From an uncultured Clostridia bacterium (lineage in GTDB: Bacteria > Bacillota > Clostridia > TANB77 > CAG-508), in NCBI GenBank assembly GCA_944389225.1, contig CALXLP010000003.1, forward strand, positions 31,206 to 95,205: a DNA stretch of 64,000 nt. The letters are read 5' to 3'. This document shows, in pieces, positions 1,387 to 38,330 of this stretch; the stretch's first letter is position 1; the number at the start of each line of letters is the position of its first letter. The notes beneath the pieces are model-generated. The model was not told the DNA's origin, made no database searches, and saw only the letters and a list, made by a program, of their open reading frames with translations. The position numbers and the translations under genes were made by a program.

Positions 1387-1443
1387 GTATATGATATCAA
1401 AATATGGAAATGATATATAGAAATATAGCAGTAGGAGGATGAA

Positions 1444-1671
1444 ATGCCAAGAGATGGAAATAATGAACATAATACAAAAGAAAGCAAATGGAAAAATGAA
1501 GATGAAATATACTTATTTGAATTACAAAAATTTTTGGATATAGTAGAAAATGTAAAGGATGAAGAATTACGAAAAGAAATTATTGCACAGATGTTGAAAT
1601 GTGATAAAAGAGTTACACAATTAGCAGAAAATATTTTTCAAAAGCTGGAAAAAAATAGTGGGATATTTTGA
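1444..1671 (+). CDS. Small hypothetical protein (75 aa, charged, helical)
   Basis: ATG preceded by the strong SD GTAGGAGGA. No recognisable family. Confidence 0.55.
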   Translation: MPRDGNNEHNTKESKWKNEDEIYLFELQKFLDIVENVKDEELRKEIIAQMLKCDKRVTQLAENIFQKLEKNSGIF

Positions 1672-14858: not shown

Positions 14859-15239
14859 TTAAGCATCTTTATAATTACCACTTTTTTCTTCTTGCATTTT
14901 TACAAGTTGTGTTGTTAATAAATAAACAACTTCTTTATTATAATTATTCAACTTTAAGTAAGCTTCTAAAAACTTATCATCTACTAAATCATTCAAAGAG
15001 GAAGCTTGATTGTCTATTAAATCATCAAAAAGAAAATTAGAACTAATATTTAGTGCTTTACAAAGATTGATGATAGTTGTAGCACTTCCAAAAGCAATAC
15101 CTCTTTCTAATTGACTAATATATCTTGTTGATAAAGAGAGTTTTTCAGCTAATTTTTCTTGTGTGTAGTTTGTTCTAGATCTAGCTAATTTGATTTTTCT
15201 ACCAATATTTTTTCTTAAATATTTTTCATTACTATCCAT
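14859..15239 (-). CDS. XRE-family helix-turn-helix transcriptional regulator
   Basis: 'YTQEKLAEKLSLSTRYISQLERGIAFGS' is an HTH_3 motif. 126 aa. Confidence 0.8.
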   Translation of the reverse strand: MDSNEKYLRKNIGRKIKLARSRTNYTQEKLAEKLSLSTRYISQLERGIAFGSATTIINLCKALNISSNFLFDDLIDNQASSLNDLVDDKFLEAYLKLNNYNKEVVYLLTTQLVKMQEEKSGNYKDA

Positions 15240-15404
15240 AGACTTTCCTCCATATTAATTTGTATAAAAGTATATCAATTAGAAAAATAAAATAGAACGA
15301 ACTTATAATTAGAGAAAAATGATAGCTAAGAACTAACTATTCATAAGAAATTAAAAAAAATAAATAAAAAAATCAAAAAAATATAAAAAAATTTGTAAAA
15401 ACTA

Positions 15405-15433
15405 TTGCAAAATCAAAAAAGTTATATTAGAAT
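15405..15433 (+). promoter_or_regulatory. Candidate dcw (mraZ) promoter
   Basis: TTGCAA (15405-15410), a 17-nt spacer, then TAGAAT (15428-15433). Lies immediately upstream of the AAGTGG boxes. Confidence 0.4.
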
Positions 15434-15440
15434 TTAGGTG

Positions 15441-15466
15441 AAGTGGAGAGAAGTGGTACAAAGTGG
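15441..15466 (+). promoter_or_regulatory. Candidate MraZ operator: three AAGTGG direct repeats at exact 10-bp spacing
   Basis: AAGTGG at 15441, 15451 and 15461 (AAGTGGAGAG AAGTGGTACA AAGTGGTGGA), 29 nt upstream of the mraZ start. Confidence 0.6.
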
Positions 15467-15494
15467 TGGAAAAAGGAAATGAGGTGGAAGACCA

Positions 15495-15920
15495 TTGCTA
15501 ATTGGTGAATATGAGCATTCTCTAGACGCTAAAGGCAGATTAATCATGCCAGTAAAATTAAGACAAGATATGGGAGAAAAGTTCATCGTAACAAAAGGGT
15601 TAGATGGATGTTTATTTGCTTTTTCACAAGAAGAATGGTTGAACTTTGAAACAAAATTAAAAGCATTACCTCTTTCTGATAAAAATGCCAGAAACTTTGT
15701 AAGATTTTTCTTATCAGGTGCAACAGAATGTGAAATAGACAAACAAGGAAGATTTTTAATACCAAATAATTTAAGAAATGCAGCAAATCTAGAAAAAGAA
15801 GTCGTTATCATCGGTGTTGGGACAAGACTAGAAATATGGGATAAAGGCATTTGGGAAAAATGTGATGAAGATATATCAGCAGATGAAATAGCTGAAAACA
15901 TGGCAAACTTAGGTATATAA
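15495..15920 (+). CDS. mraZ: Transcriptional regulator MraZ
   Basis: '[22 protein letters not shown]' plus a second SpoVT-AbrB repeat '[17 protein letters not shown]'. TTG start after the SD GAGGTGG. Confidence 0.9.
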
Positions 15921-15940
15921 CTTGAAAAAGTTTATATAGA

Positions 15941-16190
15941 TACAAAAGACAAAAATACAAAAGATAAATATAAAAGATACAAAAGATAAAGTGAGAAGAA
16001 AACAAAAGATAAGTATACGAAAGATAAAAATACAAAAGCTTTAAAAAATACAAAAGATAAATTTTTTAAAGTACAAAAGATTCTAAGATACGAATCATAA
16101 AATAAAAAAATACAAAAGCATAAAAGAACAAAAGAATTCGTGAAAACAATTTGAAACCCAAAAGAAAAAAGACAATATACAAAGATAAAG
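15941..16190 (+). repeat. Array of about 12 same-orientation TACAAAAGATAAA-like motifs in the mraZ-rsmH spacer
   Basis: Copies start near 15941, 15956, 15978, 16001, 16016, 16031, 16049, 16072, 16111, 16127 and 16176 (15-23 nt apart). A 10-bp-stem hairpin follows at 16191-16220. Confidence 0.7.
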
Positions 16191-16251
16191 ACAACTGGTA
16201 GTTTTCTAATTACCAGTTGTTTAAGCATAATAAAAAATAAGAGGTGTAAAA

Positions 16252-17181
16252 TTGAAATTTGAACATAAACCAGTCTTGCTACAAGAATGTATAGAAGGAT
16301 TACAGATAAAACCAGATGGAATATATGTAGATGGCACAATGGGAGGAGCAGGACATAGTATAGAAATTGTAAAAAGACTATCAAGTGAAGGAAAATTAAT
16401 TGGAATTGATAGAGATGAAGAAGCTTTAAAAGCTTCAAAAGAAAGGTTATCAGAATATAAAAATGTGACATATATTCATGATAATCATGATAATATAAAA
16501 GAAATATTACGAAAAATTGGAATGAATCAGGTAGATGGAATTTTACTAGACTTGGGTGTTTCTTCTTATCAATTAGATGAAAGAAATAGAGGTTTTAGCT
16601 ACTTAGGTGAAAATGAGCTAGATATGAGAATGGATAAAAGCCAAGAATTGACAGCTAAAAAAGTTGTTAATTATTATTCTGAAAAAGAATTAGCAAATAT
16701 TATTTATGAATATGGAGAAGAACGATTTTCAAGACAAATTGCTAGAAATATTTGTAATTACAGGAAAGAAAAGACAATTAATACAACAAAAGAATTAGTA
16801 GATATTATTGAAAAATCCATTCCAAAAGCAAAACAAAATGATGGACATCCAGCCAAAAGAACATTTCAAGCAATTAGAATAGAAGTCAATAATGAAATTA
16901 AACCATTATATAATACAGTAAAAGATTGTATTGATTGTTTAAAACCACAAGGAAGATTATGTATTATTACATTTCATTCTTTAGAAGATAGAGCAGTCAA
17001 AAATGCTTACATAGAAGCGAAAGGAAAATGTACTTGCCCAAGTGATTTACCATATTGCGTATGTGGAGCAAAAACATTAGGAAAAATAATTACCAAAAAA
17101 CCAATTATTGCAACAAAAGAAGAACAAGAAGAAAATTCTAGAAGTAAAAGTGCAAAATTAAGAATTTTTGAAAAGATATAA
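16252..17181 (+). CDS. rsmH: 16S rRNA (cytosine1402-N4)-methyltransferase RsmH
   Basis: '[13 protein letters not shown]', '[12 protein letters not shown]', '[11 protein letters not shown]' and 'ITFHSLEDR' motifs. TTG start after GAGGTG. Confidence 0.9.
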
Positions 17182-17210: not shown

Positions 17211-17708
17211 ATGGCAACAAGATATCAATATGAGACAAGCCCAAGAAAATTAGAACCAGATATTCGAAAAGAAAAGAAAAAACAAAATATTAAAGTAGTA
17301 AAAGACTTGCCAAAACAAGATATTAAATTATCAAAAGAACAAAAGAAAAAACATAAAAAAGCAACTTTATTAGTTATTGCTATATTTGCTGTACTATTTA
17401 CCATAAGTTATCGAAACACTCAAATCAATGAAAAGTTTAATGAAATACAGAATTTAAGAACAGAGTTGTCTTCTTTACAAAAAGAAAATGAACAATTACA
17501 AGTGACGATAGAAAATAGTTTAAATTTAAGTAATATAGAAAAACAAGCAAAAGAAAAATTAGGTATGCAAAAATTAACCAATAAACAAACTGTATATGTA
17601 AGTTTACCAAAGAAAGATTATATTGAATCTGCAACAGAAAAGGTAGAAGTTAGCAATAATAATGAAAATTGGTTTCAAAAATTTGTAGATAAAATTTTTA
17701 ATAGATAA
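17211..17708 (+). CDS. ftsL: Cell division protein FtsL-like (septum formation initiator)
   Basis: Position after rsmH. Basic N-terminus, single TM 'ATLLVIAIFAVLFTISY', then coiled coil 'LRTELSSLQKENEQLQVTIE'. Confidence 0.7.
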   Translation: MATRYQYETSPRKLEPDIRKEKKKQNIKVVKDLPKQDIKLSKEQKKKHKKATLLVIAIFAVLFTISYRNTQINEKFNEIQNLRTELSSLQKENEQLQVTIENSLNLSNIEKQAKEKLGMQKLTNKQTVYVSLPKKDYIESATEKVEVSNNNENWFQKFVDKIFNR

Positions 17709-17898: not shown

Positions 17899-19890
17899 AT
17901 GAATGAAATCAAACTATCAAGTAAGAAAAAAATGAGGAATGTTTTATTTATATCTTTTTTAATTATCATATGTTTGATTGTTAGAATTGGATATATTCAA
18001 TTGATACAAGGGAAAGAATTAAATAAACTTGCTTATGAACAACAAACATTAGATAGAAAAATCAATCCTAAAAGAGGAACCATTTATGACGCAACAGGAA
18101 AAAATATATTAGCCGTTAGTAGTACAGTAGAAACAGTTACAGTCAATCCAGGAAATATTTCTGCTGAAAATAAAGAAAAAGTGGCAAAAGTGTTGTCAGA
18201 TATATTTGAATTAGATTATGAAACAGTATTAAAGAAAGTGAAAAAAAGAAGTTCTATTGAAACTATTGTAAGAAGAGTAGAAAAAGATAAAACAGATGAG
18301 TTAAGAGAATGGATGGAACAAAATAATATTACAACAGGAATTAATATTGACGAAGATACAAAAAGATATTATCCATATAACAATTTGGCGTCACAAATTA
18401 TTGGCTTTTGTGGAAGTGATAATCAGGGATTAGATGGAATAGAAGCAAAATATGAAGAAGAACTAAAAGGAGAGCAAGGAGCGATTCAAAAACATACAGA
18501 TGCAAAGGGAGGAGAAATAGGAGAAGAAGGGGAAAACTATATACCTGCTGTCGATGGAAATGATTTAGTATTAACCATTGATTTAACAATACAATCTATT
18601 GTTGAAAAATATTTAGAGGAAGCTTGTATAGATAATGTTTGTACTGATGGCGGAAGTATTATTGTTATGAATCCACAAAATGGTGATATTTTGGCTATGG
18701 CCAATTATCCAAATTATAACTTAAATGAGCCATATGAACCATATACAGAAGAATTAAAAGCAACTTGGGATTCTTTAGAACAAGCGGAGAAAACAACATA
18801 TTTGCAAGCTGTATGGAGAAATAAGGCGATTGCAGATACCTATGAGCCAGGTTCTGTGTTTAAGTTAATTACAGCCTCAGCAGCACTAGAAGAAGGAATT
18901 ACAGATACAGATAATGAAGGAGAATTTTGTTGCACAGGTGGAATTGAAGTGTCAGGAGTTAGGATAAAATGTTGGAGATATTATAGACCACATGGTTCAG
19001 AAAGTTTAAGGCAAGCTTTGATGAATTCTTGTAACCCTGTTTTCATAGGATTAGGGCAGAAAATAGGTGTAACAAAATATTATGAATATTTGGAAAAATT
19101 CAAATTGCTACAAACGACAGGGATAGATTTACCAGGGGAAGCAGGAAGTATTTTTTTAGCTAAGGAAAAGGCTGGACCAGTGGAGTTAGCAACTATTAGC
19201 TTTGGTCAAAGATTTGAAATTACACCAATACAACTAGCAACAGCGGTATCTAGCATTGCTAATGGAGGAACTAGTATCAAACCAAGAGTGGTTAAACAAA
19301 TTATTGATAGTGAAACAAAAGAAGTAACAGATATTCCGGTAGAAAAAGGAGATACAGTTATATCAAAAGAAACTTCTGAAAAAGTATTAAGTATGATGGA
19401 AAGTGTTGTATCAGAAGGAACTGGTAAAAATGCAAAAGTAGCAGGATATAGAATTGGTGGCAAAACAGGGACTTCAGAAGATGGTGTAAATACGAATAAA
19501 TATGTAACATCTTTTTGTGGAGTAGCACCAATTGACAATCCGCAAGTAGTTGTTTTGGTTACTTTATATAATCCAACAGGTGAAGGAGGACATCAAGGTG
19601 GTGGCGTAGCGGCACCTGTAGGTGGGCAAATATTTAGTGAAATATTGCCATATTTAGAAGTGAATAAAGAAGTATTAGAAGATGATGAAGAAGAAGTGGT
19701 AAATCAAGTACAGGTACCAGATGTGATGGGAAAAACATTAAAAGAGGCAAAACAAATTCTAAAAGAAAATAACTTGGAAATATATTTAGAAAATGAAGAA
19801 ATAGATATGGAAAATACTTATGTAAAAAATCAAATTCCAAGTTCAGGAATTACTGTAAATGAACAAAGTAAAGTGATTATAGAATATTAA
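17899..19890 (+). CDS. Class B penicillin-binding protein (FtsI/PBP2B/SpoVD type) with one PASTA domain
   Basis: PBP dimerisation region, then transpeptidase motifs 'SVFK' (SxxK), 'SCN' (SxN) and 'KTGT'. C-terminal PASTA 'VQVPDVMGKTLKEAKQIL'. Confidence 0.9.
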   Translation: MNEIKLSSKKKMRNVLFISFLIIICLIVRIGYIQLIQGKELNKLAYEQQTLDRKINPKRGTIYDATGKNILAVSSTVETVTVNPGNISAENKEKVAKVLSDIFELDYETVLKKVKKRSSIETIVRRVEKDKTDELREWMEQNNITTGINIDEDTKRYYPYNNLASQIIGFCGSDNQGLDGIEAKYEEELKGEQGAIQKHTDAKGGEIGEEGENYIPAVDGNDLVLTIDLTIQSIVEKYLEEACIDNVCTDGGSIIVMNPQNGDILAMANYPNYNLNEPYEPYTEELKATWDSLEQAEKTTYLQAVWRNKAIADTYEPGSVFKLITASAALEEGITDTDNEGEFCCTGGIEVSGVRIKCWRYYRPHGSESLRQALMNSCNPVFIGLGQKIGVTKYYEYLEKFKLLQTTGIDLPGEAGSIFLAKEKAGPVELATISFGQRFEITPIQLATAVSSIANGGTSIKPRVVKQIIDSETKEVTDIPVEKGDTVISKETSEKVLSMMESVVSEGTGKNAKVAGYRIGGKTGTSEDGVNTNKYVTSFCGVAPIDNPQVVVLVTLYNPTGEGGHQGGGVAAPVGGQIFSEILPYLEVNKEVLEDDEEEVVNQVQVPDVMGKTLKEAKQILKENNLEIYLENEEIDMENTYVKNQIPSSGITVNEQSKVIIEY

Positions 19891-38052: not shown

Positions 38053-38330
38053 TTGAATAGGAAAAATGGCTTTTTCCTATTCAACAAAAAAACAACGTTG
38101 CACAGAAAAATTGCTATGCAATTTTTCGTGTCGACAAATCTTTACGCTCCTTCGAGAACTTAAATACATGTAGTAAAATTAGAAAAGTAGAGAAAAGTTC
38201 TCGCAAAGCGAGATTTGTCCTTGAATAGGAAAAATTGAGTTTTTCCTATTCAAGAACGTCGCTTCGCTCTAACGATTGCACACAAATTTTACTAACGTAA
38301 AATTTGGCGCCGAACAATGACGCGGGCTTT
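38052..38330. repeat. Hairpin-dense intergenic block with a duplicated 15-bp-stem hairpin
   Basis: GTTGAATAGGAAAAA-TGGC-TTTTTCCTATTCAAC (38052-38085) and CTTGAATAGGAAAAA-TTGAG-TTTTTCCTATTCAAG (38220-38254) flank nested inverted repeats: GACAAATCT/AGATTTGTC, CGAGAACTT/AAGTTCTCG and CACAGAAAAATTGC/GCAATTTTTCGTG. Confidence 0.75.

Follow-up and report, generated by a model that had tools for sequence, protein, structure and literature searches.

The locus analysed here is the head of a division operon, in which mraZ, rsmH, ftsL and the gene for a class B PBP follow one another (Table 1). It lies within a window of 64,000 nucleotides, by which we mean the whole stretch of DNA that was analysed. 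The host genome is metagenome-assembled (1.72 Mb, 28% G+C, 86.6% complete) and, of the relatives that bear names, the nearest are uncultured Clostridia of the gut, for example 'Clostridium sp. CAG:343' and 'CAG:440'; the sequence of the spacer region is present in chicken-gut sequencing runs. The gene ends at 15920 and 16252 leave 331 nt between mraZ and rsmH, as first stated in an earlier, sequence-only reading of this DNA. On the plus strand this spacer holds no open reading frame of at least 40 amino acids. The motif copies that it carries occupy different reading frames, spacer lengths are not multiples of 3, and a 65-codon frame in one related locus (L147) is a by-product of the 21-nt period there. 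The 179-residue minus-strand frame at 15932-16471 is an artefact, as the sequence-only reading also held, because it is of low complexity and overlaps the start of rsmH. A promoter and terminator scan called neither element within the mraZ-rsmH spacer. Upstream of mraZ, three AAGTGG boxes phased at 10 bp (15441, 15451 and 15461, ending at 15466) come after a candidate promoter, TTGCAA-17-TAGAAT (15405-15433). These boxes represent the MraZ operator to be expected here and are separate from the array in the spacer.

Table 1. Features at the head of the division operon (window coordinates)
Feature	Position	Strand	Remarks
mraZ (upstream cistron)	15495-15920	+	ORF list; stop codon TAA at 15918-15920
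Hairpin 1	15915-15937	+	Straddles the mraZ stop; core AACUU-GAAA-AAGUU at 15919-15932 with GNRA-type loop, then UAUAUA
Motif array	15941-16185	+	Consensus (U)AC-N-AAAGA(U/A)AA; A-rich (58% A), predicted largely unpaired
Internal hairpin	16039-16071	+	CUUUAAAAAA / UUUUUUAAAG; in MFE and centroid folds
Terminal degenerate copy (part of the array)	16178-16185	+	UACAAAGA
Hairpin 2	16190-16222	+	Arms ACAACUGGUA (16191-16200) and UACCAGUUGU (16211-16220)
rsmH Shine-Dalgarno and start codon	16240-16246; 16252-16254	+	AGAGGUG; TTG; sequence and ORF list
rsmH (first cistron downstream of the spacer)	16252-17181	+	ORF list
ftsL	17211-17708		Next after rsmH
Class B PBP	17899-19890		After ftsL

The spacer is occupied by an array of short motif copies. 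Exact ACAAAAG occurs nine times on the plus strand, starting at 15942, 15957, 15979, 16002, 16032, 16050, 16073, 16112 and 16128, and is accompanied by a single ACGAAAG copy at 16017 and by the degenerate copies CCAAAAGA (16158-16165) and TACAAAGA (16178-16185), likewise on the plus strand. The sequence-only reading had recognised these copies but placed their starts one nucleotide too low, because the preceding T was counted, and the copy that it put at 16176 starts at 16178. It was right that all units share one orientation: every copy lies on the plus strand and the minus strand of the spacer carries none. The enrichment is not a by-product of the 58% A composition, since none of 5000 dinucleotide-preserving shuffles of the spacer reached the nine copies observed (mean 0.35, maximum 4). 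The array thus survives the local-composition test that had been set for it. Counted genome-wide, as had also been suggested, the spacer is the only site with at least four ACAAAAG per 300 nt in the 1.72-Mb genome, and it holds the genome's sole non-coding cluster of AC-N-AAAG.

The predicted RNA fold of the spacer has a z-score of -5.7 relative to shuffled sequences, with most of the array unpaired and three helices formed (hairpin 1, the internal hairpin and hairpin 2; Table 1). The loop of the internal hairpin presents a single copy of the motif, UACAAAAGAUAAA (16049-16061). The hairpin before rsmH had been correctly drawn from the sequence, with arms ACAACTGGTA (16191-16200) and TACCAGTTGT (16211-16220); it sits 18 nt 5' of the rsmH Shine-Dalgarno sequence and ~30 nt before the start codon. 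The terminator scan makes no call at this hairpin, which has no proper U tract. The order of the module is therefore hairpin 1, an array with a modal period of 15 nt, the covarying hairpin 2 and the rsmH ribosome-binding site.

Conservation within the genus was assessed on 81 species-level genomes, whose loci were recovered by DNA and protein searches and whose MraZ proteins are 80-100% identical. All 81 spacers, which range in length from 180 to 572 nt, contain between 3 and 13 copies of ACAAAAG on the sense strand, and the opposite strand is free of them. The information in the sequence logo resides in AC and AAAGA, with the third position free (A 0.87, U 0.06, C 0.04, G 0.02); the G-A step is invariant, and a U is found at position -1 in only 69% of the copies. 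The spacing had been described as irregular, at 15-23 nt, which is not simply so: in the 73 distinct spacers from the genus, copies most often start 15 nt apart (a sharp peak of 163 cases), with lesser peaks at 22-23, 18 and 30 nt. An alignment of 15 close species gives 0.91-0.96 identity in the motif columns as against 0.58-0.75 between motifs, with the indels falling in the inter-motif columns. This contrast in identity is the mark of purifying selection that acts on the motif, not on the repeat unit.

The hairpin 1 block, TAACTTG(A/C)AAAAGTTTATATA, is nearly invariant across the genus, and in sister families other, unrelated self-complementary sequences replace it at the same place. The internal-hairpin block is conserved in the 15 closest species but is lineage-specific and not seen genus-wide. 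Hairpin 2, analysed with RNAalifold on 26 species, shows compensatory double changes in six of its ten pairs (GC/AU at one pair, CG/UA at another) together with G-U pairs; as the latter would be C-A mismatches on the opposite strand, they point to the sense-strand RNA as the molecule that folds. In some relatives (L002, L010, L034 and L040) the mraZ-rsmH spacer has an additional ~170 nt, inserted after hairpin 2 and before the rsmH ribosome-binding site and containing two strong hairpins. The first hairpin of this insert, GAAAAATTGCnnnGCAATTTTTC, occurs exactly once in the window, at 38105-38127, which makes the insert a member of a dispersed family of small repeats.

Beyond the genus, the array module is found in sister families f3, f4 and f5 of the same order, in which MraZ is only 56-62% identical; in the three genomes examined from family f2 the array is absent and the spacer measures 32-35 nt. 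Comparison of the spacer in relatives, which had been named in advance as a possible refutation, thus finds the array conserved in the genus, in the order and, as set out below, in further families of Clostridia.

We searched 401 Clostridia genomes for three AC-N-AAAGA motifs in succession, using the pattern read backwards as a control. Matches were found in 35 of the genomes and the control was near zero, with some noise from coding repeats or simple repeats (L124-L126, L137, L139-L141 and L145). The non-coding matches lie mostly within the division operon, at other positions than in the host and always on the operon's strand. Arrays of up to 23 copies stand between rsmH and ftsL (L119-L123, L128-L136, L146, L147, L151, L168, L190, L195, L208 and L212), and others occupy the mraZ 5' UTR (L148, L162, L209, L210 and L217). 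When a single genome was taken from each family, 7 of the 60 had at least four copies adjoining the operon head; RsmH homologues are present in 108 of 110 Clostridia genomes searched. In several other families (L114-L116, L136, L128 and L131) the array is followed, before the ftsL or rsmH ribosome-binding site, by a GC-rich hairpin and a U run, an arrangement that looks like an intrinsic terminator or attenuator.

Placement of the array is therefore not limited to the mraZ-rsmH junction, but extends to the division-operon head generally and to at least two other loci. One of these is sepF: in genome G182 three copies of ACAAAAGA bracket the GAGGAGG Shine-Dalgarno sequence of this gene (L211, 1506-1550), the third overlapping the ATG, and the same genome has four motif copies in its mraZ 5' UTR (L217). 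Another is the region upstream of spoIVA. In genome G285 (L127; contig C1, ~252.1-253.3 kb) a sigma-70-type promoter, a c-di-GMP-I riboswitch (56 bits against a gathering score of 35), 17 motifs and an intrinsic terminator form a unit that ends ~80 nt before spoIVA, and the division operon of this genome has no array. Two congeners, G453 and G440 (L222 and L223), have a promoter, 8-9 motifs and a terminator followed by spoIVA, so that the riboswitch is present in only one of the three congeners with such a unit. A perfect Spo0A-box-like TGTCGAA stands immediately before spoIVA in L127. The host genome's own spoIVA has no array in front of it.

Further triple matches were seen away from division genes. 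At L138 (~1440-1590, minus strand, G270) and L214 (G393) a promoter-like box, three motifs and a strong intrinsic terminator form units resembling small RNAs, which could be chance triple matches. In G252 three motifs surround the Shine-Dalgarno sequence and start of a gene for a PHD-like antitoxin (L215, 1489-1535), upstream of which lies a divergent AbrB/SpoVT-type gene.

The array is real and evolutionarily selected, and its recurrence on the transcribed strand at the operon head in many Clostridia makes an RNA control element, so far undescribed, the likeliest reading. We propose that it is a multivalent single-stranded-RNA platform through which a sequence-specific reader sets the expression of the downstream division genes, a reading to which we would assign a probability of about one half. 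The largely unstructured A-rich core would offer ~10-12 copies of the 8-nt site AC-N-AAAGA to a trans-acting factor specific for single-stranded RNA, most likely a multivalent RNA-binding protein. Occupancy of these sites would set how much of the rsmH-ftsL-pbp message is translated or survives, and mraZ would thereby be uncoupled from the division genes downstream. Hairpins 1 and 2 would bracket the platform, probably protecting the mRNA segments on either side of it. In other Clostridia the factor would find the same sites in the leader of mraZ, ahead of ftsL and on either side of the start codon of sepF, and the stand-alone promoter-array-terminator RNAs would be decoys for the same factor, although these units might be long spoIVA leaders rather than decoys. 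That the reader is a protein we infer, as we do its identity and the direction of its effect.

Several lines of evidence favour the RNA-platform reading: the motif lies on the sense strand in several independent contexts, arrays are found between a promoter or riboswitch and a terminator, copies surround a ribosome-binding site, the composition is A-rich and unpaired, and the flanking hairpins covary. Tandem duplication by itself leaves all copies in one orientation, so that the case for strand specificity is made only by the few genomic contexts that are independent of one another. The sequence-only reading had suggested either an array of binding sites for a DNA- or RNA-binding factor or a processing or stability element by which MraZ would be uncoupled from the remainder of the operon. 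Selection and conservation uphold this suggestion in outline, but the spacing, strand and context speak against its iteron-like, DNA-level form. A single metatranscriptome contig bridges mraZ, the spacer and rsmH, which hints at their co-transcription, and only weakly so because assembled contigs cannot show ends, strand or abundance and may include DNA; in two metatranscriptome runs the spacer contigs are deeper than their flanks, contig depth and ends being uninterpretable.

As to the reader, the KH-domain proteins KhpA, KhpB and RNase Y are candidates only. All three are encoded in the host genome, the one genome in which they were sought, and our literature search found no RNA sequence motif for KhpA/KhpB. 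No match to Hfq was found in the host genome, which is 86.6% complete. Presence and absence do not discriminate between readers, since MazF, SpoVG and SpoIVA all occur in the array-free family f2 as well. In the host genome no regulon could be made out: single copies of the motif ahead of genes numbered 47, as against 40 for the reversed control, which is no enrichment, and no gene had two or more upstream copies. Shine-Dalgarno mimicry was rejected, as only 4 bp of pairing with the 16S 3' end could be made out by eye.

The RNA-platform reading can be made more specific, if only tentatively and with more doubt than belief. AC-N-AAAGA may be the site of a post-transcriptional regulator of Clostridia, possibly the KhpA/KhpB pair, that controls rsmH-ftsL-pbp, mraZ and sepF through multi-site leaders, and that is titrated by dedicated decoy RNAs, one of them switched by c-di-GMP. 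Through such a regulator, cell division would be tied to second-messenger and sporulation signals.

The array could instead be an endonucleolytic processing site of the kind used in selective RNA processing and stabilisation, which is the main alternative and which we consider possible but rather unlikely. In this scheme RNase Y, possibly with the Y-complex, would cut the array at its invariant G/A step, and exonucleases would trim the products back to hairpin 1, as the stable 3' end of the mraZ message, and to hairpin 2, as the protected 5' end of the rsmH-ftsL message, giving the cistrons differing half-lives. The layout fits this scheme, with a hairpin after the upstream stop codon, an unpaired AU-rich intercistronic tract containing a G/A step, and a second hairpin before the downstream start; the enzyme, moreover, is present in the host. 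In B. subtilis, RNase Y acts on AU-rich RNA with little structure, where it cuts preferentially within G/A, and its consensus is weak (PMC11780869). This preference matches the invariant G-A of the motif, but a weak consensus does not account for an 8-nt site in which AC and the A run are strictly conserved. The known sites in cggR-gapA and saePQRS (PMC11780869, PMC5449607) resemble the array in being intercistronic, AU-rich and unpaired, with a G/A step and structure nearby; they differ in being single and lacking a strong motif, whereas the array repeats an 8-nt motif 4-25 times. Arrays without flanking hairpins also exist (L020, L092, L101, L110, family f3 and L147), and neither the stand-alone units nor the copies around the sepF ribosome-binding site are easily understood as sites of operon maturation.

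We think it improbable that the array acts at the level of DNA, as a roadblock or second operator in the division operon coated by a DNA-binding protein such as an AbrB-type transition-state regulator. Proteins that bind DNA cooperatively typically do so at multiple direct repeats, and Spo0A and SpoIIID are encoded in the host genome. An in-vitro-selected AbrB site is said to contain TTT-W-CAAAAAA, which resembles the TTT-ACAAAAGA of some families. The observations above are nevertheless difficult to reconcile with this explanation: the modal spacings of 15 and 22-23 bp are out of helical phase, the motif keeps to the sense strand wherever it was found, arrays lie between riboswitch and terminator or surround a ribosome-binding site, the flanking hairpins show covariation and G-U pairs, and the motif is unlike the 10-bp-phased AAGTGG boxes for MraZ upstream of mraZ. 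The consensus sequences of SpoIIID, Spo0A and sigma-E, as we take them to be, do not fit the array motif.

A cluster of cleavage sites for a MazF/EndoA toxin (U^ACAAA type), with ACNAAAGA RNA as the substrate and the division operon mRNA severed on activation of the toxin, is an explanation that we largely reject. The MazF enzyme of Ca. Desulforudis audaxviator prefers UACAAA and cleaves UACUAA, UACGAA and UACCAA weakly (PMC8634880), a tolerance that matches the base frequencies at the third position of the array motif. A conserved MazF/PemK toxin gene lies 26 kb upstream on the same contig (G000:C3:21049-21372, 118 bits, 10 kb before the start of the window). Its relatives, present in 39 of 41 related genomes and 97 of 110 Clostridia genomes, including those of the array-free family f2, are near-universal, so that the gene behaves as a core gene and not as part of a mobile toxin-antitoxin module. 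MazF fails as an obligatory reader because the 5' U is not conserved, the conserved G-A falls outside the six-base site, and genome G095 (100% complete, 13 motif copies) has no PF02452 match. In addition to the copies without U at position -1 in the genus, AACAAAAG copies are conserved, and position -1 is C, A or U in other families.

Least credible of all is a neutral, functionless minisatellite generated by slippage, for although copy number and spacer length vary (320-572 nt) among strains with 99-100% identical MraZ and the 15-nt unit resembles a product of tandem duplication, the motif is kept in the sister families with strongly diverged MraZ, is found at different operon positions in other families, and evolves more slowly than the spacers between its copies.

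ftsL is rate-limiting in model bacteria; to our knowledge, the tuning of the first division-operon genes in Gram-positive anaerobes, and that of ftsL above all, is poorly understood, and we know of no CsrA- or Hfq-like hub for division genes in the phylum that bears the array. The array provides a strongly selected and easily recognised RNA signature at the division-operon head of a large group of gut Clostridia, uncultured and cultured, and AC-N-AAAGA is a defined 8-nt bait for finding the reader factor. Should the stand-alone array RNAs act as decoys, a sponge-type regulatory circuit would be revealed. For annotation, the array accounts for 'abnormally long' mraZ-rsmH and rsmH-ftsL gaps in array-bearing genomes.

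Comparison with known systems yields resemblances of organisation. A permissive Rfam 15 scan of 15200-16500 (E up to 10) gave chance-level hits only (E of at least 1, well below gathering), and Rfam scans of 43 related loci gave nothing on the arrays themselves. Our literature search found no paper containing both ACAAAAGA and ftsL, and those that it returned on mraZ/rsmH intergenic regions have no bearing on the array. Plasmid-type iterons and centromere repeats, which are regular and adjoin a replication or partition gene on a mobile replicon, were rejected, given the fixed chromosomal position in the division operon of 81 species with mraZ and rsmH as neighbours. So was a ToxI-like type III toxin-antitoxin system, with its exact ~36-nt units, terminator and toxin gene, as the array units are irregular and the gene downstream is rsmH.

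At the head of division operons themselves, UpsM of the Rhodobacteraceae (PMC5089854) is, like the array RNA, a lineage-specific long non-coding RNA, lying in the 5' leader and having a terminator and a proposed role in trans. It differs in being structured, dependent on Hfq and RNase E, alphaproteobacterial, located upstream of mraZ and without a motif array (PMC5089854), and the two are unrelated in sequence. The MraZ-binding repeats, GTGG-type boxes one helical turn apart in the mraZ promoter or leader, are direct repeats at the head of the same operon, here the AAGTGG boxes at 15441-15466. In sequence, in their exact 10-bp phasing and in lying upstream of mraZ they are unlike the array. 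The mraW RNA motif of Actinobacteria in Rfam is a conserved structured hairpin in front of mraW/rsmH; it belongs to another phylum, is structured, and has no match at the spacer.

Closer in organisation to the stand-alone units are Rli55 of Listeria and EutX of Enterococcus, reportedly riboswitch-controlled RNAs that sequester EutV. The G285 unit similarly consists of a riboswitch followed by non-coding repeats resembling protein-binding sites and a terminator; it differs in its ligand (c-di-GMP) and in lacking ANTAR dual hairpins, and the riboswitch is confined to one of the three congeners. The concept of multi-site leaders combined with decoys is already known from other systems; the motif described here, its distribution and its targets are not. 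The array motif, AC-N-AAAGA with a period of 15-23 nt, differs from that of CsrA (GGA in loops; the logo is without GGA) and from that of TRAP ((G/U)AG at 2-3-nt spacing), and no CsrA- or TRAP-like reader is linked to it. The resemblance to CsrB, which is functional only, lies in the coexistence of cis arrays with the stand-alone units of G285, G453 and G440. The CsrB/RsmZ decoys, the multi-site leaders bound by CsrA and the TRAP-bound trp leader of Bacillus thus share with the array many short single-stranded motifs separated by variable spacers, a conserved motif in varying copy number, and a division between leaders acting in cis and stand-alone RNAs acting in trans.
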